From Candidatus Omnitrophota bacterium (GTDB taxonomy: Bacteria; Omnitrophota; Gorgyraeia; Gygaellales; Profunditerraquicolaceae): a DNA stretch of 64,000 bases. Under the pieces are notes generated by a model. The model was given only the letters and a program-made list of their open reading frames with translations. It had not been told where the DNA came from and did no database searches. The DNA is taken from the NCBI GenBank assembly GCA_026387405.1, contig JAPLLV010000056.1:25765-89764 (forward strand), written 5' to 3'. Both the position numbers and the translations under genes were made by a program. Positions 8,053 to 45,280 of this stretch are shown in pieces. Position 1 is the stretch's first letter. Each line of letters starts with the position of its first letter.

Positions 8053-8128
8053 GCCGGCGTAGCTCAGTCGGTAGAGCGTCTGTTTTGTAAACAGATGGTC
8101 GGGGGTTCGATTCCTCTCGCCGGCTCCA
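8053..8128 (+). tRNA. tRNA-Thr (anticodon UGU)
   Basis: Hand-folded cloverleaf: acceptor gccggcg/cgccggc, D-arm gctc-agtcggta-gagc, anticodon stem tctgt/acaga with loop tttgtaa, T-loop ttcgatt, 3' CCA encoded. Confidence 0.85.
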
Positions 8129-8138
8129 CTAAAAAAGA

Positions 8139-8804
8139 ATGATTTCAGTAAATCAACAAACGATTAAAAATTTATATTGGGAAAAGGGCTATACTGTGCC
8201 GGATATCGCGAAACGGATTAATATTTCTTCATGGGCACTTTATAATTTTATGGATAGACATAAGATTGGACGGCGCGATCGTTCACAGACAAGCTTTCTT
8301 TTGAGCCGTAATAAACCCCGGTTTATAATAAACAACACTCTTACAGCTTCGCAGGAAAAGCTAAAGATTGCAGGAGTAATGTTATACTGGGCAGAGGGCA
8401 CTTTATTGCATAACACTGTGGATTTTACTAATTCCAATTCAAATATGGTTAGGTTGTTCTTGAAATTCTTAAGGGAAATTTGTGGAATAAGCGAAAAGAG
8501 ATTACGTGTTTATCTTTATTGTTATTCCTATCAGAAGGTAGAAGACCTATTGAACTACTGGCACAAAGTTACGGGAATTCCGTTATCTCAATTTACAAAA
8601 CCATACATAAGAGAAGGAAACATTAATTCTAGCTTAAGAAAATTACCATACGGATTAATTCATGTAAGGTATAATGATAAACAATTGCTTGAGATAATCA
8701 AACAATGGATTGATGAGTATATAGTTTGGACAGGTACCCAAGTGGCCAAAGGGGGCAGACTGTGTAAACGCAGCGTCTTGCCGAAAGGCAGGATGGAAAA
8801 GTAG
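8139..8804 (+). CDS. LAGLIDADG-like homing endonuclease candidate with an N-terminal HTH. It is free-standing and lies immediately upstream of the intron-containing tRNA-Tyr. The 3' end of the ORF reads through the tRNA-Tyr 5' exon
   Basis: IAGVMLYWAEGT resembles the LAGLIDADG/AEG dodecapeptide, followed by a block (NMVRLFLKFLREICGISEKRLRVYLY) typical of single-motif LAGLIDADG enzymes. Location between tRNA genes next to a group I intron. Confidence 0.45.
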   Translation: MISVNQQTIKNLYWEKGYTVPDIAKRINISSWALYNFMDRHKIGRRDRSQTSFLLSRNKPRFIINNTLTASQEKLKIAGVMLYWAEGTLLHNTVDFTNSNSNMVRLFLKFLREICGISEKRLRVYLYCYSYQKVEDLLNYWHKVTGIPLSQFTKPYIREGNINSSLRKLPYGLIHVRYNDKQLLEIIKQWIDEYIVWTGTQVAKGGRLCKRSVLPKGRMEK

Positions 8805-9014
8805 GTGAATTCAGGGGAGCCCCAAGAAACACTTGGGGGAATCCTGAGCCAAGCCCGCCAACTTTTTTCCGGCGGGAAGGTGCAGAGACTAAGCGCCTAC
8901 CACCTAAAACTTTAAAAAGTAACGGTGATGAGATAGTCCAAGCCTTGAGGTAACTCGAGGGCACTTGAAATCTGCTGCACTTGTGCTTCAGAGGTTCGAA
9001 TCCTCTCCTGTCCA
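8728..9014 (+). tRNA. tRNA-Tyr (anticodon GUA) interrupted in the anticodon loop by a 204-nt group I intron. Exon 1 is 8728-8763, exon 2 is 8968-9014
   Basis: Exon 1 ggacagg-ta-ccc-aagtggccaaa-ggg-g-gcaga-ctgt and exon 2 aaa-tctgc-tgcacttgtgcttc (long variable arm)-agagg-ttcgaat-cctct-cctgtcc-a. The spliced product is nearly colinear with E. coli tRNA-Tyr (CCCGAGCGGCCAAAGGGAGCAGACUGUAAAUCUGC). The spurious antisense ORF MDRRGFEPL is the classic tRNA reverse-complement signature. Confidence 0.8.
8764..8967 (+). ncRNA. Group I intron (204 nt) in tRNA-Tyr
   Basis: 5' exon ends with U (cugu|), paired to the internal guide gcag just inside the intron (P1 with a U.G wobble). The intron ends with G (cacttg|). 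The R-like element gtgcagagactaag (8881-8894) and S-like element gagatagtcc (8930-8939) form P7 (gacta/tagtc). Further hairpins at ccccaag-aaaca-cttgggg and cccgcc...ggcggg. Confidence 0.75.
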
Positions 9015-9037
9015 TTGACTTTATCTACAGAACCAAT

Positions 9038-9658
9038 ATGGAAAATATAATAAAAACAGACCGAGATGCTTCTCTTTTTATCGATTTAGCAGATAAAGAT
9101 TATTTAGCAGTCAGGTTACTTTTTGGTTGTGGTAACTGTTTTTATAATTTAGCCGCCTACCATTCTCAGCAATGCTTGGAAAAATATCTAAAAGCATTTC
9201 TTGTTCAGAAAACCAGCACTTATCTCAAAACACATAATTTGAAAGAATTAAGGGAGATGGCCGAAGCTCATAATAGCTATTTCTCTAAAGACGAGGTAAA
9301 AAAAGCTTTGGCTGAGTTTGATAAATATGACCAAGTTACCCGTTATAGCGCAGAGGCCACTTACGACCCAAATTCACAGAAAAATAAGTGCTTTGAGATT
9401 AAAGGGGTGTGGAGCTTCGGTCTTGGGTTTGGCAATATTAGAACTTTAGATAAGCTTGTTTACGAAATAAGGAGTTTAATGGACTTCGATAAATTAAAGG
9501 GAAGAAACAATCTAAAAGACATATTTAAGGAAGAGAAAAACAATTCATTTATCATGTGTTGGAAATTACCGATTCCGATAAAAAGAGTATTAACTATAGA
9601 AAATGATTATTGGGGGGGCAGGTTAGATATAAAAGTTGAGTTTGTAGAAGTCAGTTAA
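9038..9658 (+). CDS. HEPN domain protein (putative RNase / toxin-like) with an Rx5H motif
   Basis: AAYHSQQCLEKYLKAFL helix and LREMAEAHNSY (R-x5-H) characteristic of HEPN. The first 19 codons of the tracked ORF overlap the tRNA-Tyr 3' exon, so the start at 9038 is preferred. Confidence 0.55.
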   Translation: MENIIKTDRDASLFIDLADKDYLAVRLLFGCGNCFYNLAAYHSQQCLEKYLKAFLVQKTSTYLKTHNLKELREMAEAHNSYFSKDEVKKALAEFDKYDQVTRYSAEATYDPNSQKNKCFEIKGVWSFGLGFGNIRTLDKLVYEIRSLMDFDKLKGRNNLKDIFKEEKNNSFIMCWKLPIPIKRVLTIENDYWGGRLDIKVEFVEVS

Positions 9659-35528: not shown

Positions 35529-37070
35529 ATGACGAGGCATACGATTTTAATCTTAGATTTCGGTTCGCAATACACGCAGTTGATCGCCAGGCGCGTGCGG
35601 GAGAACAAAGTTTTCTCGCGCATTATCCCGTACAACACCCCGGCAAAAGAGATCGCCGCCATGGGTCCCAAAGGCCTGATCTTATCCGGAGGCCCGGCGT
35701 CTGCCATCACTAAAAAGAGCCCTTACCCGGATAAGGGAATATTCAAACTTGGGATCCCCATCCTGGGTATATGCTATGGCATGCAGGTGATCAGCGAAAT
35801 GTGCGGCGGTAAAGTCAGGCATACCAAGGAGCGCGAATTCGGCAAGACCGAATTATTCATAGATGATAACCGCGACCTCTTCAGCCATATGCCGGGAAAC
35901 CTGACCTGCTGGGCCAGCCACGGGGACTACGTAAATAAACTTCCTCCGGGATTCCATATTTCGGCGCACACCTTGAACGCTCCTATCGCCGCGATGTCTA
36001 ACCGCAATAAAAAGCTCTACGGCGTGCAATTCCATCCCGAGGTTACCCATACGGACAAAGGGAACCAGGTACTGGCAAACTTTTTATTTAAGATCTGCGG
36101 CGCATTAAGCCGCTGGACCATGCAATCATTCATCAAGGAAAGCATAGAAAATATCAAAAAAACCCTGGGTAAAAACAAGGTAGTGCTGGGCCTAAGCGGC
36201 GGGGTAGACTCCTCGGTAGCCGCGCTCTTAATCCACAAGGCCATAGGGAAGAATCTGCGCTGCATCTTTATAGATAACGGGGTGATGAGAAAAGACGAGC
36301 CCCAACAGGTAAAAAGCGTCTTTCGCGGGATGTATCACTTGAACCTGGACTATGTGGACCGCAGTAAACGCTTCCTGGAACGCCTAAGAGGCATTACTGA
36401 CCCCGAGCAAAAACGGAAGATCATCGGGTACGAGTTTGTCAAGGTATTCGAAGAAGAAGCGCACAAACTAAGAGGGGTAAAATACCTCGGCCAGGGGACG
36501 CTTTATCCGGACGTAATCGAATCCTCTTCGCCAACCGGCGCGCCTTCCTGCCGCATTAAAAGCCATCACAACGTCGGCGGCCTGCCGGAACATATGAAAT
36601 TGAAGCTGATCGAGCCGCTGCGCGACCTATTTAAAGATGAGGTGCGGCAGATCGGCAAAGAACTCGGCCTCCCCAGCGAGATAATCCTGCGCCAGCCTTT
36701 TCCGGGTCCGGGCCTGGCGATCAGGATCATCGGAGAGGTAACCAGAGAACGGCTGGAACTTCTGCGCGAAGTCGACCGCAGGGTCATCGAAGAGATCAGG
36801 GTTGCCGGACTCTATGAGCAGATCTGGCAATCCTTTGCCGTCTTGTTACCCATAAAAAGTGTGGGGGTTATGGGAGATGAACGCACTTACGAGAATACGA
36901 TAGCATTGCGCTGCGTCACCAGCCTTGACGGGATGACTGCGGACTGGGCAAAGATACCTTACGAGATCCTGGAAAAAATATCCAATCGTATTATCAACGA
37001 AGTAAAAGGAGTAAACCGCGTAGTCTACGATATCAGCTCCAAGCCTCCCGCGACTATTGAGTGGGAATAA
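35529..37070 (+). CDS. guaA: GMP synthase (glutamine-hydrolysing)
   Basis: Class-I GATase domain, then the ATP-PPase SGGVDSS motif; 513 aa. Confidence 0.95.
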
Positions 37071-37231: not shown

Positions 37232-40200
37232 ATGCCTCGTTCAGAATTCGTCCACCTACACCTGCATACCCAATACAGCCTCCTTGACGGCGCCTGCCGC
37301 ATCCCGGAATTATTAAGCCTAGCCAACCAATATAAAATGGATTCACTGGCTATTACCGACCATGGAGCAATGTTCGGGGCCATCGAATTCTACCTGGAAG
37401 CCCAAAAAGCGGGGATAAAACCGATTATCGGCTGCGAGGCCTATGTCGCGCCGAAAAGCCGCTTTGATAAAACCGGATCAGGCATTGACGAGGCATCCTA
37501 TCACTTTATACTCCTTGCCAAAGACGAGGCCGGTTACCACAACCTGATGAAGCTGGTATCCATCGCGTACCTGGAAGGTTTTTATTACCGTCCGCGCATT
37601 GACAAAGAGTGCCTGGCGCAGCATTCCAAGGGACTTATCGGCCTGACTGCCTGCCTGAAGGGTGAGATCCCGTCCCTGATCAGGGAAAAACGTTTTAACG
37701 ATGCCTTAAAAGAAGCGGACAATTATTTAAACATCTTTGGCAAGGGCAATTTCTACCTGGAGGTGCAAGGCAACTCCATCCCTGAGCAAAGAATAGTTAA
37801 CGAAGGACTGATACGCATTTCTAAAGAATTACACATCCCGCTTGTGGCCACCAATGACGTGCATTACCTAAAAAAGGAGCACGCCTCAAGCCACGAGGCG
37901 CTTTTGTGTATCCAGACCCAGACCACGCTTGACGACCCTAACCGCATGCGCCTGCAAACAGACGAATTCTATTTTCAATCACCGGAGGAGATGAAAGCAC
38001 TCTTCAAAGACCTGCCGGAAGCGATCGCCAATACCCTGGAGATCGCCCAGCGCTGTAACCTGGAGTTGGATTTTTCCCAGATACATTTGCCTAAATATAC
38101 GCCTCCCAACGGCCAGGACAAAGAAGACTACCTCAAGGACCTCTGCGCGGGAGGGCTGAAAAACCGTTTCCCGGAAGCCGCACCGGAAATTAAGGAACGC
38201 CTGGAATACGAATTAAAGATGATCAAGAATATGGGTTTTATCAGCTATTTCCTGATCGTCTGGGATTTTATTCATTACGCTAAAAGCAAAAATATACCTG
38301 TGGGACCGGGGCGCGGTTCAGCCGCGGGAAGCCTGGTGAGTTATCTTTTAGGTATTACCGATATCAATCCTTTAAGTTATGGCCTACTCTTTGAGAGATT
38401 CCTTAATCCTGAACGCTTAGGCCTGCCGGATATCGATATAGATTTCTGTTACGAAAGAAGGCAGGAGGTCATTGATTATGTGACCCAGAAATACGGCCGC
38501 CAGAACGTCGCCCAGATCATCACCTTCGGGACCATGCAGGCCCGCGCCGTGTTGCGCGATGTCGGCCGGGTCATGGGCATAGCCTACGCGGATGTTGACC
38601 GTATTGCCAAGATGATACCCCCGGACCCTAATATCACCCTAAAGGACGCGCTTGAATCAGAAGCGGAAATCAATAACCTCTACAAGAACGACCCCCAGAT
38701 AACAAAACTTATCGATACCGCGCTCTCCCTGGAAGGATTGAACCGTCATGCCTCAGTGCACGCCGCAGGGGTAGTCATCGCGGACAAACCGCTGGATAAT
38801 TACATGCCCCTGTTTAAGACCGGAGACGACCAGATCACCACCGGCTACAGCATGGGGATGCTCGAAAAGATCGGCTTATTGAAAGTGGACTTTCTGGGAT
38901 TAAGGACACTCACTGTCATTGACGAAACCCTAAAATTAGTCAGGCGCACCCGCGGCATAGAAATAGACCTGAAAAATCTTTCTCTCGAAGACTCTAAGAC
39001 CTACAAGCTTCTTGCGAATTCGCAAACAATCGGGGTATTCCAGGTAGAAAGTTCCGGGATGCGCGACCTCTTAAGAAAACTGGAACCCAGCCATTTTGAA
39101 GATATCATCGCGCTGCTGGCACTTTACCGCCCGGGGCCTATAGGTTCGGGGATGCTCGATGACTTCATGAAACGTAAACACAACCAGATTCCCATCAAAT
39201 ATGAACATCCGAAGTTAGAGCCCATTCTCAAGGAAACCTACGGTATAATGGTATACCAGGAGCAGATCATGCAGATCGCATCAAGCCTGGCAGGCTTCAG
39301 CCTGGCCCAGGCAGATATCCTGCGTAAGGCCATGGGCAAAAAGATACCCGAGGTAATGGAGAAACAGCGTAATATTTTTATCTCCGGCTGCGTGAATAAC
39401 GGTATAAAAGAAATCACTGCCTCCAAGATATTCGATCTCATCGAATATTTCTCGGGGTACGGCTTCAATAAATGCGTTGTTGGCTCTACAAAAATAATTT
39501 CTGGAGAAAATGGAGAGCGTATCACAGTAAAAGACTTATTTAGCAACAGGCAGCTGGCCAAAACTACATTCAGCTGCCAGGAAAATTTGAAAATCGTCAA
39601 AACCAACATAAAAGATGTGGTTTATAATGGGGCGAAACCGGTATACCGGCTTCAAACATGCCTCGGCAGAGAAATAGTAGCCACCTCTAATCATCCTTTA
39701 TTTACTTTTAAAGGCTGGAAAAACCTCGGTGATTTACGCATCGGGGAACGAATCGCATTGCCGCGGATCATACCTCTAGAGACCGACAAACAGTGGGAAC
39801 CGCATAAAATAATTGTTTTAGCGGGAATAATCTCTGAAGGAAATACTTGCCATCCTTCCGGGTTTTATTTTTATAATAATAGCGAGACGCTGGTAAAAGA
39901 CTATGTTGAGAACTTGCGTAAGTTTAACAATACAATCCCAAAAATCTATAAAAGAAGGGGGCGTTTTGAGGTATACGCGGGCACAGGCAAAGTCACCAGA
40001 TTTTCCAAAAACCAAATCCCCTGGAATAAACAAGGTTCCTTGACCACTACTACTTTTTATAAATGCGGGGCAAGGCTATGGATAGAAGAATTGGGCCTAG
40101 ACTATAAAAAGGCGAGTGATAAATTTATCCCTCCGGAGCTATTTTCCTTGGAGAATAAACAAATAGCCTTATTCCTGGGTAGGCTTTGGTCAGGAGACGG

Positions 40201-42022
40201 ATTTGTTTTTGGCAAAAACAACTCTATACCTTTTTACGCAAGCTCCTCCAGTAAATTATGCCAACAGATACAGGACTTATTGCTTAGGCTTAATATAGCA
40301 AGCCGTTTAAGCACAAAAAACTTTAAATATAAGTATAAAGGAATCAAGAAAGACGTGCCCGGTTTTACCCTACACCTTTTTGGGAGGGATAGCATAACCA
40401 GATTCATCCAGCTTATCTGTCCTTTTATTATCGATAAAGACGAACAGATCTCACATCTACGTAATTACTACGATAAAGCTTCTGATAATAGTGAATCAAA
40501 AGATACCCTGCCTCCCGAAATAAAGGAGATCGTGAAGGAAGAAAAAGATAAATTCGGCTTGACTTGGAAAGAATTAGAAACAAGGTCCGGAGTTTCAATG
40601 AAGGAATTTTACGGCGCGGACCATCCTAAGAAAAAAGGATTCCGCCGTTATACCATCTTGCGCTTGGCGCGCTTCCTTGAGTCCGAGAGACTATTAAGGT
40701 TTGTAAACTCGGATATACTATGGGATAGAGTTAGTTCGGTTGATTATGTTGGCAGGGAAGATACCTATGACATAGAAATCGAGGGGATCCATAACTTCAT
40801 TGCCAATGGCATAATAGTACACAACTCACATTCGGCCGCCTATGCCATGATCTCTTACCGCACCGCGTATCTAAAGGCGAATTTTCCCGTGGAATTCATG
40901 ACCGCGCTCTTGACCTCAGAACGCGACAATACCGATAAGATCGTAGAATACGTCAATGAGGCCCGGCACATGAACCTTGAGGTACTTCCTCCGGATATAA
41001 ATGAAAGCGAATCCCTGTTTAAGGTTGTAGACCAAAAGACCATCCGCTTCGGGCTGCTGGCAGTAAAAAACGTGGGGCAGGGTGCGGCAGAATCCATTGT
41101 CCAGGCCCGGCAAAACGACGGCAAATTTCTTTCCTTGCAGGACCTCTGCAAACGGATAGACCTACGACTGGCAAACCGCAAGGTCTTGGAAAGCCTGATC
41201 AAGTGCGGGGCCATGGATTATTTTAAGATGCCGCGGGCACAGATGGTCGCCGGATTAGACGGCATATTAGAACAATCCTCAAAGATACAGCGTGACCGCG
41301 CCAAAGGCCAACTGTCATTCTTCGACCAGGCGTTCAAAGAGAATGGTTTCCGCCAGAGCATAAACGACCTGCCCAAGGTACACGAATGGCCGGAGCCGCA
41401 GGTCCTGGCCTTTGAGAAAGAGATACTCGGGTTCTACGTTTCCGGCCACCCGTTAGCCCGTTATGCCGGCCAGCTTAAACGTTTTAGCTCCACATCTATA
41501 CCGGAATTATCGCGGCATAAAGACGATGAAGAGATAAAATTAGTAGGACTTATCTCTAAGATCAAACAGACCCTTACCCGCGCCAAGCAGGAAAAAATGG
41601 CCATCCTGAAACTGGAAGACCTGGAGGGCTCCGTAGAAGCCCTGGTCTTTCCCCAGGCATACCAAAAAGTTTCCCGCTATCTTTTGGCAAGCACGGTAGT
41701 CCTGGTCAGGGGAAGGCTCAACCTGAAAGAAGATACGCCTAAGATCATCATAAATGACCTGTTCCCGGTGGATGAAATTTATAAAATGATCTCCAGCATA
41801 AATATCAACCTGTCCGGCATAAGGGAAAATCTCTTTACCAGCCTAAAGGAGGTCCTTTGCGAAAATAGGGGGAAAATCCCTATATATATGCACCTGGATA
41901 CGTCCACGCGTTCGCGCATCCATCTCGTGGTGGGCGATGGGCTTTTTGTCGAGCCGAGCGAAAAACTGATCCAGGATATAGAAACTCTTTTAGGCGAAGA
42001 CCGCCTATCTTTAATACTCTAG
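37232..42022 (+). CDS. dnaE: DNA polymerase III alpha subunit, interrupted by an in-frame intein
   Basis: PHP domain HLHLHTQYS, polymerase core and OB domain. The ORF is 1596 aa, and is 1145 aa without the intein. Confidence 0.95.
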   Translation: MPRSEFVHLHLHTQYSLLDGACRIPELLSLANQYKMDSLAITDHGAMFGAIEFYLEAQKAGIKPIIGCEAYVAPKSRFDKTGSGIDEASYHFILLAKDEAGYHNLMKLVSIAYLEGFYYRPRIDKECLAQHSKGLIGLTACLKGEIPSLIREKRFNDALKEADNYLNIFGKGNFYLEVQGNSIPEQRIVNEGLIRISKELHIPLVATNDVHYLKKEHASSHEALLCIQTQTTLDDPNRMRLQTDEFYFQSPEEMKALFKDLPEAIANTLEIAQRCNLELDFSQIHLPKYTPPNGQDKEDYLKDLCAGGLKNRFPEAAPEIKERLEYELKMIKNMGFISYFLIVWDFIHYAKSKNIPVGPGRGSAAGSLVSYLLGITDINPLSYGLLFERFLNPERLGLPDIDIDFCYERRQEVIDYVTQKYGRQNVAQIITFGTMQARAVLRDVGRVMGIAYADVDRIAKMIPPDPNITLKDALESEAEINNLYKNDPQITKLIDTALSLEGLNRHASVHAAGVVIADKPLDNYMPLFKTGDDQITTGYSMGMLEKIGLLKVDFLGLRTLTVIDETLKLVRRTRGIEIDLKNLSLEDSKTYKLLANSQTIGVFQVESSGMRDLLRKLEPSHFEDIIALLALYRPGPIGSGMLDDFMKRKHNQIPIKYEHPKLEPILKETYGIMVYQEQIMQIASSLAGFSLAQADILRKAMGKKIPEVMEKQRNIFISGCVNNGIKEITASKIFDLIEYFSGYGFNKCVVGSTKIISGENGERITVKDLFSNRQLAKTTFSCQENLKIVKTNIKDVVYNGAKPVYRLQTCLGREIVATSNHPLFTFKGWKNLGDLRIGERIALPRIIPLETDKQWEPHKIIVLAGIISEGNTCHPSGFYFYNNSETLVKDYVENLRKFNNTIPKIYKRRGRFEVYAGTGKVTRFSKNQIPWNKQGSLTTTTFYKCGARLWIEELGLDYKKASDKFIPPELFSLENKQIALFLGRLWSGDGFVFGKNNSIPFYASSSSKLCQQIQDLLLRLNIASRLSTKNFKYKYKGIKKDVPGFTLHLFGRDSITRFIQLICPFIIDKDEQISHLRNYYDKASDNSESKDTLPPEIKEIVKEEKDKFGLTWKELETRSGVSMKEFYGADHPKKKGFRRYTILRLARFLESERLLRFVNSDILWDRVSSVDYVGREDTYDIEIEGIHNFIANGIIVHNSHSAAYAMISYRTAYLKANFPVEFMTALLTSERDNTDKIVEYVNEARHMNLEVLPPDINESESLFKVVDQKTIRFGLLAVKNVGQGAAESIVQARQNDGKFLSLQDLCKRIDLRLANRKVLESLIKCGAMDYFKMPRAQMVAGLDGILEQSSKIQRDRAKGQLSFFDQAFKENGFRQSINDLPKVHEWPEPQVLAFEKEILGFYVSGHPLARYAGQLKRFSSTSIPELSRHKDDEEIKLVGLISKIKQTLTRAKQEKMAILKLEDLEGSVEALVFPQAYQKVSRYLLASTVVLVRGRLNLKEDTPKIIINDLFPVDEIYKMISSININLSGIRENLFTSLKEVLCENRGKIPIYMHLDTSTRSRIHLVVGDGLFVEPSEKLIQDIETLLGEDRLSLIL
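39473..40825 (+). mobile_element. Intein (451 aa) with a LAGLIDADG homing-endonuclease domain, inserted at the FNK|SHSAAYA site of DnaE
   Basis: N-terminal Cys block CVVGSTKI, two LAGLIDADG-type blocks (KIIVLAGIISEGNT and IALFLGRLWSGDGFV), C-terminal IVHN followed by Ser +1. The flanks GYGFNK / SHSAAYAMISY are contiguous in uninterrupted DnaE proteins. Confidence 0.9.
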
Positions 42023-42152: not shown

Positions 42153-42183
42153 CACCCCGCGCTAATAGGAATTGCGCGGGTGC
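42153..42183 (+). promoter_or_regulatory. hup leader hairpin caccccgcgc-taataggaatt-gcgcgggtg (shared leader motif, variant stem)
   Basis: Same architecture as 30253 and 34243, with compensatory C/G swaps in the stem. Confidence 0.55.
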
Positions 42184-42209
42184 GCCCTTTCTGGGCAGGG
42201 AGGTTCAAG

Positions 42210-42482
42210 ATGACCAAGAAAGATATTATCCTTAAGGTTTCGGACGAAACAAACCTGAAGCAGATTGACGTCAAAAAGGTCGTGCAGAAAACCTTTGACT
42301 GTATCGTGCAGGCGCTGGGAAGAGGAGAGAAGATCGAGTTGCGCAATTTCGGCGTCTTCAAGGTAAAGCAGAGAAAAAGCCGCACCGGCAGGAATCCGCG
42401 TACCGGAGAAGTAGTCCCTGTCCCGCCCAGAAAAGTCGTTGTCTTCAAGCCGGGCCTGGAGATGAAACACGATATAAGATAA
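42210..42482 (+). CDS. hup: DNA-binding protein HU
   Basis: 90 aa, GFGxF and RNPxTG beta-arm motifs (NFGVFKVKQRKSRTGRNPRTGE). Confidence 0.9.
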   Translation: MTKKDIILKVSDETNLKQIDVKKVVQKTFDCIVQALGRGEKIELRNFGVFKVKQRKSRTGRNPRTGEVVPVPPRKVVVFKPGLEMKHDIR

Positions 42483-42509
42483 ACCTTTCACCCTCCCCAA
42501 TACTAAAAC

Positions 42510-43790
42510 ATGTTTAAAAGGATATCAGGCACAAAAGACATTCTGCCTGACGAAACACCGTCCTGGCAAGAAGTGGAAGATTTAGGCCGTAAGGTATTTT
42601 CTCTCTATAATTACCGCGAGGTGCGGCCCCCCTTATTGGAAGAGGCAAAGCTATTTTCCCGGTCGCTCGGCGAATTCGCGGAGGTGGTGCAGAAACAGAT
42701 GTTCCTGGTGAAAAACCAGGATGAGCTTTACGCCTTAAGGCCGGAGGCAACCGCTTCGGTAGCGCGCGCCTACATAGAAAATAACCTCGATAAGACCTAC
42801 GGCTTCTTGAAATTGTATTATACCGGGGCAATGTTCCGCCTGGAGCGCCCGCAAAAGGGCCGTCTAAGACAATTCCACCATATCGGCTGTGAGGCCATCG
42901 GTTCAAGCCTGCCTGAAGTGGATATTGAAGTGATATCCCTAGCAAACAGATTATTGGAGGCCTGGCAGGTCAATAATTATACGATAAAATTGAACAGCCT
43001 CGGCTGCAGTGAGGACAAATCGAAACTTTCCCTGAACCTACGCAAGGCCCTTAAAAGTAATAAAGGCTCACTCTGCGAAGATTGCAAAGTCCGCTATGAA
43101 AAAAATACCTTACGCATACTGGACTGCAAAAACGAGGCCTGCCAGGAAATAGTAAGCAAAATTTCCCTGGAAGAAAAACACCTGTGCCCGGAATGCAAGG
43201 CTCATTTTGAAACCGTAAAGAACGGGCTCCAAAATTTGGGTATCAGATACGAGATCCTGCCGCAACTGGTGCGGGGACTGGACTATTACACCCGGACTAT
43301 TTTCGAGATAAAACACGACGCCTTAGGAACCCAGGATGCCATCGGCGCGGGCGGAAGATACGATAATTTGCTCAAAGAACTGGGCGGGCCGGATGTCGGG
43401 GCAATGGGCTTTGCCTTCGGAGTAGAAAGAATACTATTGGCGTCTTGCGGGAGGCTCAAGAAGCCGGAAGAAAATCTGGTATACATAATAACTATGGGAG
43501 AAAAACCCAAAGCGCAAGGTTTGAGATTATTGCAAGACTTGCGCCGGGAGGGTATTGCCGCAGATACGGATTATGAAGGAAAATCCCTTAAAGGCGCATT
43601 GCGCAGGGCTAATGACCTAAGGGCAAAGAGAGTTTTAATCATAGGAGAAGACGAACTCAAGAAACAGATAGTAACCCTTAAAGATATGGGGTCAGGGGAA
43701 CAGAAAGAAATTAAGCAAGAGGATCTTATTCAGTCATTGCGAGGAGCCAATGGCGGTTGCGAGGCGAAGCCGAAGCAAACCAGCAGCTAG
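42510..43790 (+). CDS. hisS: Histidine--tRNA ligase. The C-terminal roughly 19 codons are encoded by the family-4 repeat
   Basis: Class II motifs and the HisRS anticodon-binding domain; 426 aa. Confidence 0.9.
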   Translation: MFKRISGTKDILPDETPSWQEVEDLGRKVFSLYNYREVRPPLLEEAKLFSRSLGEFAEVVQKQMFLVKNQDELYALRPEATASVARAYIENNLDKTYGFLKLYYTGAMFRLERPQKGRLRQFHHIGCEAIGSSLPEVDIEVISLANRLLEAWQVNNYTIKLNSLGCSEDKSKLSLNLRKALKSNKGSLCEDCKVRYEKNTLRILDCKNEACQEIVSKISLEEKHLCPECKAHFETVKNGLQNLGIRYEILPQLVRGLDYYTRTIFEIKHDALGTQDAIGAGGRYDNLLKELGGPDVGAMGFAFGVERILLASCGRLKKPEENLVYIITMGEKPKAQGLRLLQDLRREGIAADTDYEGKSLKGALRRANDLRAKRVLIIGEDELKKQIVTLKDMGSGEQKEIKQEDLIQSLRGANGGCEAKPKQTSS

Positions 43791-43877
43791 CGAAAAATGG
43801 GATTCCTCGCTGCGCTCGGAACAGGCTGCGCAATCTAAAATTAAGATTGCTTCGCCCCTTCGGAGCTCGCAATGACG
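43733..43877 (+). repeat. Family-4 structured repeat, copy 2, carrying a roughly 75-nt internal insertion. It spans the hisS 3' end and the hisS-aspS spacer
   Basis: gtcattgcgaggagc ... gcgcaatctaaaattaagattgcttcgccccttcggagctcgcaatgac. Shares the outer stem, inner stem and UUCG hairpin with copy 1 at 21284. Confidence 0.75.
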
Positions 43878-43885
43878 ACTTTACT

Positions 43886-45280
43886 ATGCTGCGCACACAC
43901 ACCTGCGGTGAACTAAAGACCTGCGATATCAATAAAGAAGTAACCCTCTGCGGATGGGTTGCCAGCCGCAGAGACCACGGTAAACTTATCTTTATCGATA
44001 TCCGCGATAGGACCGGCGTGACGCAGATAGTTTTCCTGCCTAAGGAGTGCCCGGAGGCGTATAAAAAAGCTCAAGACCTAAGAAGCGAGTTCGTGGTCAA
44101 GATAACGGGGAAAGTAAATAAACGGCCGGAAAACACGATCAACCCCAAGCTGCCTACCGGAGAAATTGAAATACTGGTTGAGGAACTCCAGATACTTAAC
44201 CCCAGCCTGACCCCGCCTTTTGAGATACAGGACGAGTTCGAGCGGGATGTAACCGAAGAGATACGGCTCAAATACCGGTATCTGGACCTGCGCCGTAAAA
44301 AAGTATTTGATAATTTTGTGTTAAGGAGCCGGCTATACAGGGTGATCCGCTCTTATCTTGACGCAAACGGATTTATAGAATGCGAAACGCCGATCCTGAC
44401 TAAATCCACCCCCGAAGGGGCGCGGGATTACCTGGTCCCTTCCAGGCTCAACCAGGGATATTTTTATGCCCTGCCGCAGTCTCCGCAATTATTCAAACAG
44501 ATCCTTATGGTATCGGGTATTGAAAAATACTACCAGATAGCCAAATGTTTCCGCGACGAAGACCTGCGCGCGGACCGCCAGCCGGAATTTACGCAACTGG
44601 ACCTGGAGATGTCTTTCGTGGAAGAAGAGGATATTTTCGCGCTCTTTGAAGAGATGATGCGGTTTATATTTAAAGATTTAAGGGGCGTGGATTTGATCAC
44701 GCCTTTCCCCCGGTTGACCTATGCCGAGTCGCAAAAAAAATACGCCTCGGATAAACCCGACTTGCGCAAAGAGCTGAATAATCCTTTTGCCTTTACCTGG
44801 GTCACGGATTTCCCTCTCTTTAAATACAATGAAGAAGAGAAACGCTGGGAGAGCGAACACCACCCTTTTACCTCGCCGCGCAAAGTTGACCTAGATGCCC
44901 TGGAAACCCATCCGGATAAAGTCCTCTCGCGGTCTTATGATCTGGTCTTAAACGGCATGGAAATAGGCTCGGGCTCTATCAGGATCCATGAGCAAGAATT
45001 GCAGGAAAAGATATTCAAGATCATCGGGCTTGAAGCCGAAGATGCCCGGAAGCGCTTCGGGTTCCTTCTGGAAGCCTTTCAATACGGCGCGCCGCCCCAC
45101 GGCGGATTTGCCTTTGGCATAGACCGGCTGCTTACAGTCCTGGCGGGCGAATCAAGCATACGCGAGGTGATCGGTTTTCCCAAAACCAGCGCCGGGGTAT
45201 GCCTGTTGACCGGAGCTCCTTCGGAGGTAGAGGAAAAACAATTAAAGGAATTGGGATTAGCGGTTAAAAAGACAAAATAG
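43886..45280 (+). CDS. aspS: Aspartate--tRNA ligase
   Basis: N-terminal OB fold and class II motifs (FRDEDLRADRQPEFTQLD, GGFAFGIDRL). The start at the Met preceding LRTHTCGEL is preferred. Confidence 0.9.
   Translation: MLRTHTCGELKTCDINKEVTLCGWVASRRDHGKLIFIDIRDRTGVTQIVFLPKECPEAYKKAQDLRSEFVVKITGKVNKRPENTINPKLPTGEIEILVEELQILNPSLTPPFEIQDEFERDVTEEIRLKYRYLDLRRKKVFDNFVLRSRLYRVIRSYLDANGFIECETPILTKSTPEGARDYLVPSRLNQGYFYALPQSPQLFKQILMVSGIEKYYQIAKCFRDEDLRADRQPEFTQLDLEMSFVEEEDIFALFEEMMRFIFKDLRGVDLITPFPRLTYAESQKKYASDKPDLRKELNNPFAFTWVTDFPLFKYNEEEKRWESEHHPFTSPRKVDLDALETHPDKVLSRSYDLVLNGMEIGSGSIRIHEQELQEKIFKIIGLEAEDARKRFGFLLEAFQYGAPPHGGFAFGIDRLLTVLAGESSIREVIGFPKTSAGVCLLTGAPSEVEEKQLKELGLAVKKTK

Follow-up and report, generated by a model that had tools for sequence, protein, structure and literature searches.

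The dnaE Locus and Its Insert

The stretch of DNA analyzed here, hereafter the window, comprises 64,000 nucleotides of contig JAPLLV010000056.1 from a Candidatus Omnitrophota bacterium. It carries dnaE, the gene for the DNA polymerase III (Pol III) alpha subunit, as a single open reading frame (ORF) with an in-frame insert at the finger-domain motif GYGFNK|SHS. This insert can be classified with high confidence as a contiguous full-length class 1 intein. An earlier note, made from the sequence alone, had placed an intein here; its length for dnaE is confirmed, and its coordinates for the insert are exact to the base.

37232-42022, forward strand: dnaE precursor gene, a single ORF of 1596 codons plus stop encoding Pol III alpha with one intein
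37232-39472, forward strand: N-extein, 747 codons, ending ...EYFSGYGFNK, with Lys as the -1 residue
39473-40825, forward strand: intein, 451 codons (dnaE codons 748-1198), in frame and stop-free
40826-42022, forward strand: C-extein, 398 codons plus stop, starting SHSAAYAMISYRTAYLKANFP..., with the +1 nucleophile Ser at 40826-40828

Pfam domains of Pol III alpha (PHP, DNA_pol3_alpha, DNA_pol3_finger, HHH_6, and OB-fold) lie on both sides of the intein in the dnaE product. The NCBIfam DnaE equivalogs PRK06826 and PRK05673 exceed their cut-offs, each in two stretches that break at about residue 748 and restart after about residue 1198. The N-extein aligns with Thermus aquaticus (Taq) Pol III alpha to 'ygfnk', and in silico deletion of 39473-40825 yields a 1145-residue protein reading ...EYFSGYGFNK|SHSAAYAMISY.... 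This spliced product is colinear with the Taq structure (3e0d/2hpi, E 1e-296) through 'ygfnksh', in agreement with the prediction that removal of the insert restores GYGFNK-SHSAAYA, and is also colinear with the Mycobacterium and Escherichia coli Pol III alpha structures (E values across the set from 1e-296 to 1e-243). The insert itself translates as CVVGSTKI...NGIIVHN and is followed by a Ser codon, so that the N-terminal Cys, C-terminal His-Asn, and Ser+1 of the earlier reading can all be read directly. The reverse strand of the same interval is rich in stops.

Splicing Motifs, Endonuclease, and Fold

The intein consists of two splicing (HINT) segments separated by an endonuclease and an accessory domain, located as follows.

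39473-39784, forward strand: HINT N-terminal part (HINT-N, aa 1-104), matched by TIGR01445 over aa 1-78
39785-40432, forward strand: double-motif LAGLIDADG homing-endonuclease domain (aa ~105-320)
39809-39856, forward strand: LAGLIDADG motif 1, IIVLAGIISEGNTCHP, with core IIVLAGIISEGNT (aa 113-125) and acidic residue E122 (LAGIISE122-G)
40166-40207, forward strand: LAGLIDADG motif 2, ALFLGRLWSGDGFV (aa 232-245), with acidic residue D242 (LGRLWSGD242-G)
40433-40708, forward strand: helical accessory domain (aa ~321-412), with a conserved K-G-F-R-R motif at 40631-40648
40709-40825, forward strand: C-terminal splicing part (HINT-C), matched by TIGR01443 and aligning with Ssp DnaB mini-intein residues 112-155

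All four splicing blocks are present. Block A opens with Cys1 (39473-39475), and block B is T71-S-N-H74 within VATSNHPLF (39677-39703). Block F is TYDIEIEGIHNF, also shown as TYDIEIEGIHNFIA, and includes D433; block G, NGIIVHN, ends in His450-Asn451 and is followed by Ser+1. Residues 4-101 are 35-37% identical to the Ssp DnaB mini-intein structures. Profile hidden Markov models (HMMs) for N-terminal splicing, C-terminal splicing, and LAGLIDADG regions, the check that the earlier note had proposed, all score above their curated cut-offs. In NCBIfam, TIGR01445 (intein_Nterm) reaches 41.6 against 24.5 and TIGR01443 (intein_Cterm) 29.7 against 15.6. In Pfam, Intein_splicing (PF14890) reaches 90.7 bits against 35.8 over insert residues 12-451 (E 1e-25), and LAGLIDADG_3 (PF14528) reaches 53.5 bits against 22.5 over aa 230-315, the second half-domain (E 3e-14). 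The first half-domain has just a sub-threshold WhiA-type match in Pfam, and both of the LAGLIDADG-type blocks noticed earlier are readable at the positions listed.

An AlphaFold2 model of the intein built on six family members (predicted local distance difference test, pLDDT, 87.9; predicted template modeling score, pTM, 0.88) has the fold of a full-length intein endonuclease. The top Foldseek matches are such proteins (7qss, 1dq3, 2cw7, and 1vde): the best match in the Protein Data Bank (PDB) is TliVMA (7qss; E 4e-21, template modeling (TM) score 0.69/0.72), followed by PI-PfuI, PhoVMA, PI-TkoII, and PI-SceI. Lower ranks are occupied by mini-inteins and free LAGLIDADG enzymes, each aligned on the corresponding part of the model. 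The HINT portion matches the DnaB, RecA, and VMA intein structures and the hedgehog autoprocessing domain. Two alpha-beta-beta-alpha-beta-beta-alpha half-domains are present and match PI-PfuI, I-DmoI, and I-Tsp061I.

The splicing domain and homing endonuclease of the earlier description are thus both upheld by HMMs and fold, but its count of two modules is not, because aa ~321-412 form a third. This accessory domain has no Pfam match even at E<=10. A sub-model of it (pLDDT 76) finds weak fold matches (E 0.3-2), nearly all to helix-turn-helix (HTH) domains of the Cro/cI type, and an HTH-like character can tentatively be suggested; the domain is presumed to be a DNA-contact module. In TliVMA, PI-PfuI, and PI-TkoII, an accessory domain follows the endonuclease and precedes the C-terminal HINT part; the ones in TliVMA and PI-TkoII are HTH-like and modulate DNA cleavage (Beyer et al., PMC8966425). 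Since the domain in the window resembles these modules in position and character, the module order is read as HINT-N, LAGLIDADG endonuclease, accessory domain, HINT-C.

A Widespread Family at One Insertion Point

Relatives of the intein are encoded by at least 235 species genomes in a scan that used one genome per species and an alignment of six members as query. Junctions were read in the best 80 loci, and the insertion point is identical in all 78 in which both junctions are readable (GFNK|SHS in 66, GFNK|SHT in 6, GFNR|SHS in 3, and GFNK|SHA in 3). Hosts include Omnitrophota, with 60-66% identity to the window intein, as well as Planctomycetota, Actinomycetota, Pseudomonadota, Bacteroidota, Myxococcota, Elusimicrobia, and Eisenbacteria. 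A word-indexed search for metagenomic homologues adds DnaE fragments that are 41-53% identical, from Ca. Aquicultor, Omnitrophota, Proteobacteria, and Rhodothermales, with DnaB inteins ranked below; the DnaE matches share the junctions GYGFN(K/R)|C...VHN|SH(S/A). HMMER against 1.84 billion cluster representatives returned 466 at E<=1e-30, many of them about 1600 residues long and matched at about 750-1200. One metagenomic DnaE with Thermus/Deinococcus-like exteins by eye (P0185) has the same-site allele as well.

Members of this same-site family resemble the window copy. They are 438-466 aa long, are 41-66% identical to it over residues 1-451, and share its module order as well as Cys1, His-Asn, and Ser+1. 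Nine residues (C1, T71, H74, E122, D242, D433, N441, H450, and N451) are invariant in 79 of 79 aligned same-site inteins. The endonuclease motifs SEGNTCHP and GRLWSGDG and the KGFRR motif of the accessory domain are conserved over the 79 sequences, which span at least eight phyla. The window copy, whose species lies outside the collections searched, shares no more than 66% identity with any other member. It adds a new, otherwise canonical and ordinary member to a widespread family that occupies a single site. A literature search on inteins in Omnitrophota found no paper.

The DnaE sequences closest to the window exteins (75-82% identity over 302 junction-spanning residues) contain an uninterrupted GYGFNKSHS. 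Intein-less sequences of this kind include P0057-P0061 and P0064, several of them labeled Omnitrophota, and P0064 shares an identical stretch with the window C-extein just past the junction. These sequences bear on the idea that the 451 residues are a native, lineage-specific DnaE domain or an assembly or frameshift artefact, which has nothing in its favor beyond the insert being in frame. Intein-less orthologues 75-82% identical to the exteins are uninterrupted exactly at the junction, with no domain in this place, the insert recurs at one residue across 78 independent assemblies, and the 451 residues have an intein fold and pass the cut-offs of the intein and LAGLIDADG HMMs. Neither of the two findings that the earlier note had named as refuting an intein was obtained. 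A native domain or artefact can therefore be given next to no weight.

Three predicted viral contigs from IMG/VR carry a DnaE intein at (A/G/S)FNK|C...N|SHS with 33-42% identity to the window intein.

L083, 4001-5344: viral-contig intein
L084, 4001-5392: viral-contig intein
L085, 4001-5170: viral-contig intein

If truly viral, such contigs are possible vehicles between phyla. No cultured phage was found with the same-site allele; just distant inteins in terminase, RecA, and DnaB turned up. The L084 intein ends in Ser-Asn rather than His-Asn.

Relationship to Known Inteins

Outside the DnaE site, the nearest relatives are DnaB inteins (...RESG|SIEQD...; Ssp and Npu mini-intein structures 1mi8, 4o1r, and 6frg). 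Their splicing domain is 30-37% identical to that of the window intein, and full-length DnaB inteins are 27-32% identical across all 451 residues, endonuclease and accessory regions included. The window intein matches the intein part of the NCBIfam DnaB model PRK07773 end to end (1-451, E 2e-72). Cys1, His-Asn, and Ser+1 are shared, and the full-length DnaB inteins found end HN|S. The solved Ssp DnaB mini-intein is the closest HINT relative and has the same Cys1 and His-Asn arrangement. DnaB inteins differ in host gene and target, and the solved structures are engineered or natural mini-inteins without an endonuclease. A further intein of the same lineage (27% identity, full length) lies in a dCTP-deaminase-like protein, P0025, at ...GK|C...HN|ST; with this location, the lineage has colonized at least three host genes (dnaE, dnaB, and that of P0025).

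The cyanobacterial split DnaE intein (Ssp/Npu; site 'a' of Novikova et al. 2016) interrupts the same host protein in the same finger-domain motif. It is inserted at ...EY|CFN... (PMC6868429), four residues upstream of the window site, and is seen as FAEY|CLAYETEI in P0269. The split intein is encoded by two genes, lacks an endonuclease, and uses Cys+1, whereas the window intein is a single ORF with a nested endonuclease and Ser+1, and similarity between the two is marginal (phmmer E 0.1-0.6). Site, architecture, +1 residue, and similarity together rule out the window intein as an allele of the cyanobacterial split intein, which belongs to another lineage. Cyanobacterial and halophilic DnaE inteins were likewise rejected as closest relatives, with phmmer E values of 0.03-0.6 compared with 1e-22 for DnaB inteins.

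P0269 is itself unusual: this 1871-residue protein has a cyanobacterial-type DnaE N-half with the split-intein N-part at FAEY|C and two more contiguous inteins elsewhere in the finger domain, one following ETYGV and the other LLRR. One of these two holds a long array of near-identical repeats of about 60 residues (SFSLATPSENSISQTDTSS...).

TliVMA (7qss), PI-PfuI (1dq3), PI-TkoII (2cw7), and PI-SceI (1vde/1lws) share architecture and fold with the window intein (Foldseek E 4e-21 to 5e-11, TM <=0.72), and the archaeal TliVMA, PI-PfuI, and PI-TkoII also have an accessory domain in the corresponding position. They differ in their archaeal or yeast hosts, host genes, and sequence (10-18% identity). 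PI-SceI differs further in that its DNA-recognition region is inserted within the HINT domain. Thermus thermophilus DnaE-1 and DnaE-2 are likewise contiguous inteins in a bacterial DnaE, and DnaE-1 has been used in engineering (PMC3359363).

Novikova et al. (PMC4760082) cataloged 116 PolIII-alpha inteins and described five insertion points that cluster as a hot spot within 75 finger-domain residues, with hosts that include Planctomycetes, Proteobacteria, Actinobacteria, and Bacteroidetes. Because the GFNK|SHS site falls within this hot-spot region and these clades, it has very probably been cataloged already.

Evidence for Present or Past Mobility

The insert is compositionally foreign to its host gene. 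Its G+C content is 0.40 compared with 0.49-0.50 in the exteins, and G+C at third codon positions (GC3) is 0.43 compared with 0.61.

Horizontal movement was assessed over 71 loci by comparing intein identity with that of 500 flanking DnaE residues. The two are correlated with a Spearman coefficient of only 0.38, and in many cross-phylum pairs, such as that of a Tepidisphaeraceae and a Polyangiales genome, inteins are 0.60-0.66 identical but flanking exteins 0.38-0.45. An intein more similar than its exteins across phyla is a hallmark of horizontal movement into a conserved site. For pairs within Omnitrophota, intein identity is 0.61-0.66 and extein identity 0.63-0.80. At amino-acid identities of 60-66%, synonymous sites in the endonuclease are saturated.

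The predicted homing site can be read from the sequences that flank the intein; joined, they form the predicted empty-allele target.

39452-39472, forward strand: predicted homing site, left half, TCGGGGTACGGCTTCAATAAA
40826-40846, forward strand: predicted homing site, right half, TCACATTCGGCCGCCTATGCC

Two natural empty alleles, L081 and L082, match this reconstituted 42-position target at 34/42 and 33/42 positions, respectively. Across 82 alleles, codon positions 1-2 of the target are more than 90% conserved.

In a rival history, the intein still splices but its endonuclease no longer cuts, leaving a fixed, vertically inherited passenger that is kept since imprecise loss would destroy an essential polymerase. 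The Omnitrophota comparison is what old vertical inheritance would give, with intein identity that tracks that of the exteins at a lower level. Decay also appears in the family. The Rhodothermales homologue P0006 lacks the accessory domain (about 55 residues are gone), which is otherwise conserved across the same-site family; P0011 appears frameshifted inside the endonuclease, and P0005 appears frameshifted after the intein, in the C-extein. All three oddities could be real decay or assembly error. Moreover, such stages are predicted by the general homing-cycle model (PMC8966425). However, both acidic residues, SEGNTCHP, GRLWSGDG, and KGFRR are kept across the 79 sequences, and such retention would be difficult to account for had DNA cleavage not been under selection in at least part of the family. 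The patchy presence and absence of the intein among close relatives and the excess of intein over extein similarity across phyla also argue against a passenger that has lost its endonuclease activity, which we regard as unlikely though a serious contender.

In a third view, the host has come to use the intein as a post-translational switch, with splicing conditional on redox state, temperature, or stress gating the supply of active replicase. Novikova et al. (PMC4760082) note that inteins concentrate in replisome proteins, the Pol III alpha fingers being one hot spot, and argue on this ground that some may be functionally retained. The intein has seven cysteines including Cys1, and Cys126 lies within an invariant motif. 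That motif belongs to the endonuclease and is away from the splice junctions, however, and the sequence indicates no specific sensor. Close relatives thrive without the intein, and its patchy cross-phylum distribution is the pattern of a selfish element. A regulatory role is accordingly improbable.

Proposed Splicing and Homing Mechanism

The 1596-residue precursor would very likely undergo protein splicing, since all residues checked are intact and dnaE is an essential gene. Splicing has to work if the cell has no other replicative polymerase gene. The steps follow established class 1 intein chemistry. After translation of dnaE as a 1596-residue precursor, Cys1 would carry out an N-S acyl shift at Lys-1, and transesterification would move the acyl group of the resulting thioester to the hydroxyl of Ser+1. 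Cyclization of Asn451, assisted by His450, would then free the intein, and a final O-N shift would link ...GFNK to SHS... to give the active 1145-residue Pol III alpha. For annotation, the locus should be treated as one dnaE with an intein and a mature polymerase of 1145 aa, not 1596 aa. Division into a 'LAGLIDADG endonuclease' and a 'partial DnaE', names that several database entries give to similar fragments, is to be avoided.

As for the endonuclease, we lean toward the view that the window copy is currently active and can home. The freed 451-residue protein would recognize uninterrupted dnaE across the junction, probably aided by its accessory domain, and cut this allele by means of E122 and D242. 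Recombinational repair templated on the intein-bearing allele would then copy the intein into the empty site.

Several points weigh against reading the window copy as an active homing intein. Splicing and DNA cleavage are both predicted activities, and conservation of the acidic residues is no proof of activity, as many inteins keep their motifs after activity is lost. The identity pattern within Omnitrophota is explained equally well by long vertical residence and by recent homing. No intein-free allele was seen within the window's own species, in collections that do not include that species. Finally, the fold matches behind a possible HTH-like accessory domain are not significant.

A broader proposal extends active homing from the window copy to the whole GFNK|SHS lineage. 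On this proposal, which is doubtful as a whole, the lineage may be still active and spreading across phyla, may derive from DnaB inteins, may rival the split intein of Cyanobacteria, unrelated to it and inserted four codons away, for an overlapping homing site, and may be shuttled by DnaE genes on viral contigs. If true, the endonuclease and its HTH-like accessory domain would be an uncharacterized meganuclease directed at one of the most conserved stretches of DNA in bacteria, and the window copy would be a natural contiguous Cys1/Ser+1 intein that could serve as a tool. The survey itself provides a compact data set on homing into a replicase, covering at least 235 species, empty alleles in close relatives, retained catalytic residues, and cross-phylum similarity that is greater for the intein than for the host gene. 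None of these results will surprise intein specialists.

Neighboring Genes and an Upstream Group I Intron

Upstream of dnaE lies guaA (35529-37070, forward strand), and downstream are HU, hisS, and aspS (42180-45280, forward strand). The order dnaE-HU-hisS-aspS is also found on the intein-less Omnitrophota contig L081 (GCA_030691725.1).

A group I intron and a LAGLIDADG ORF had been described upstream of dnaE. The intron is supported by an Rfam match at 8694-8960 (forward strand, 82 bits) inside a tRNA gene that ARAGORN missed, but the ORF at 8139-8804 has no LAGLIDADG match.

8139-8804, forward strand: ORF of 221 aa, between tRNA-Thr (8053-8128) and the split tRNA-Tyr, overlapping the 5' exon and the start of the intron
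8728-9016, forward strand: split tRNA-Tyr-like gene, with 5' exon 8728-8763, intron ~8764-8967, and 3' exon 8968-~9016

Joined in silico, the exons form an 85-nt tRNA-Tyr(GTA) with a long variable arm. By eye, CUGU in the exon can pair with GCAG in the intron, with a U.G pair at the splice site. The intron is about 204 nt long, too short for an ORF. To our knowledge, tRNA-Tyr is not a usual bacterial host of group I introns. The 221-residue ORF has weak N-terminal HTH-type matches in Pfam (best E 0.0046) and no match among PDB sequences; 'LYWAEGT' is its sole LAGLIDADG-like feature. A second ORF (8981-9658, forward strand, 225 aa) begins within the 3' exon of this tRNA gene and encodes a HEPN domain (Pfam E 3e-14).

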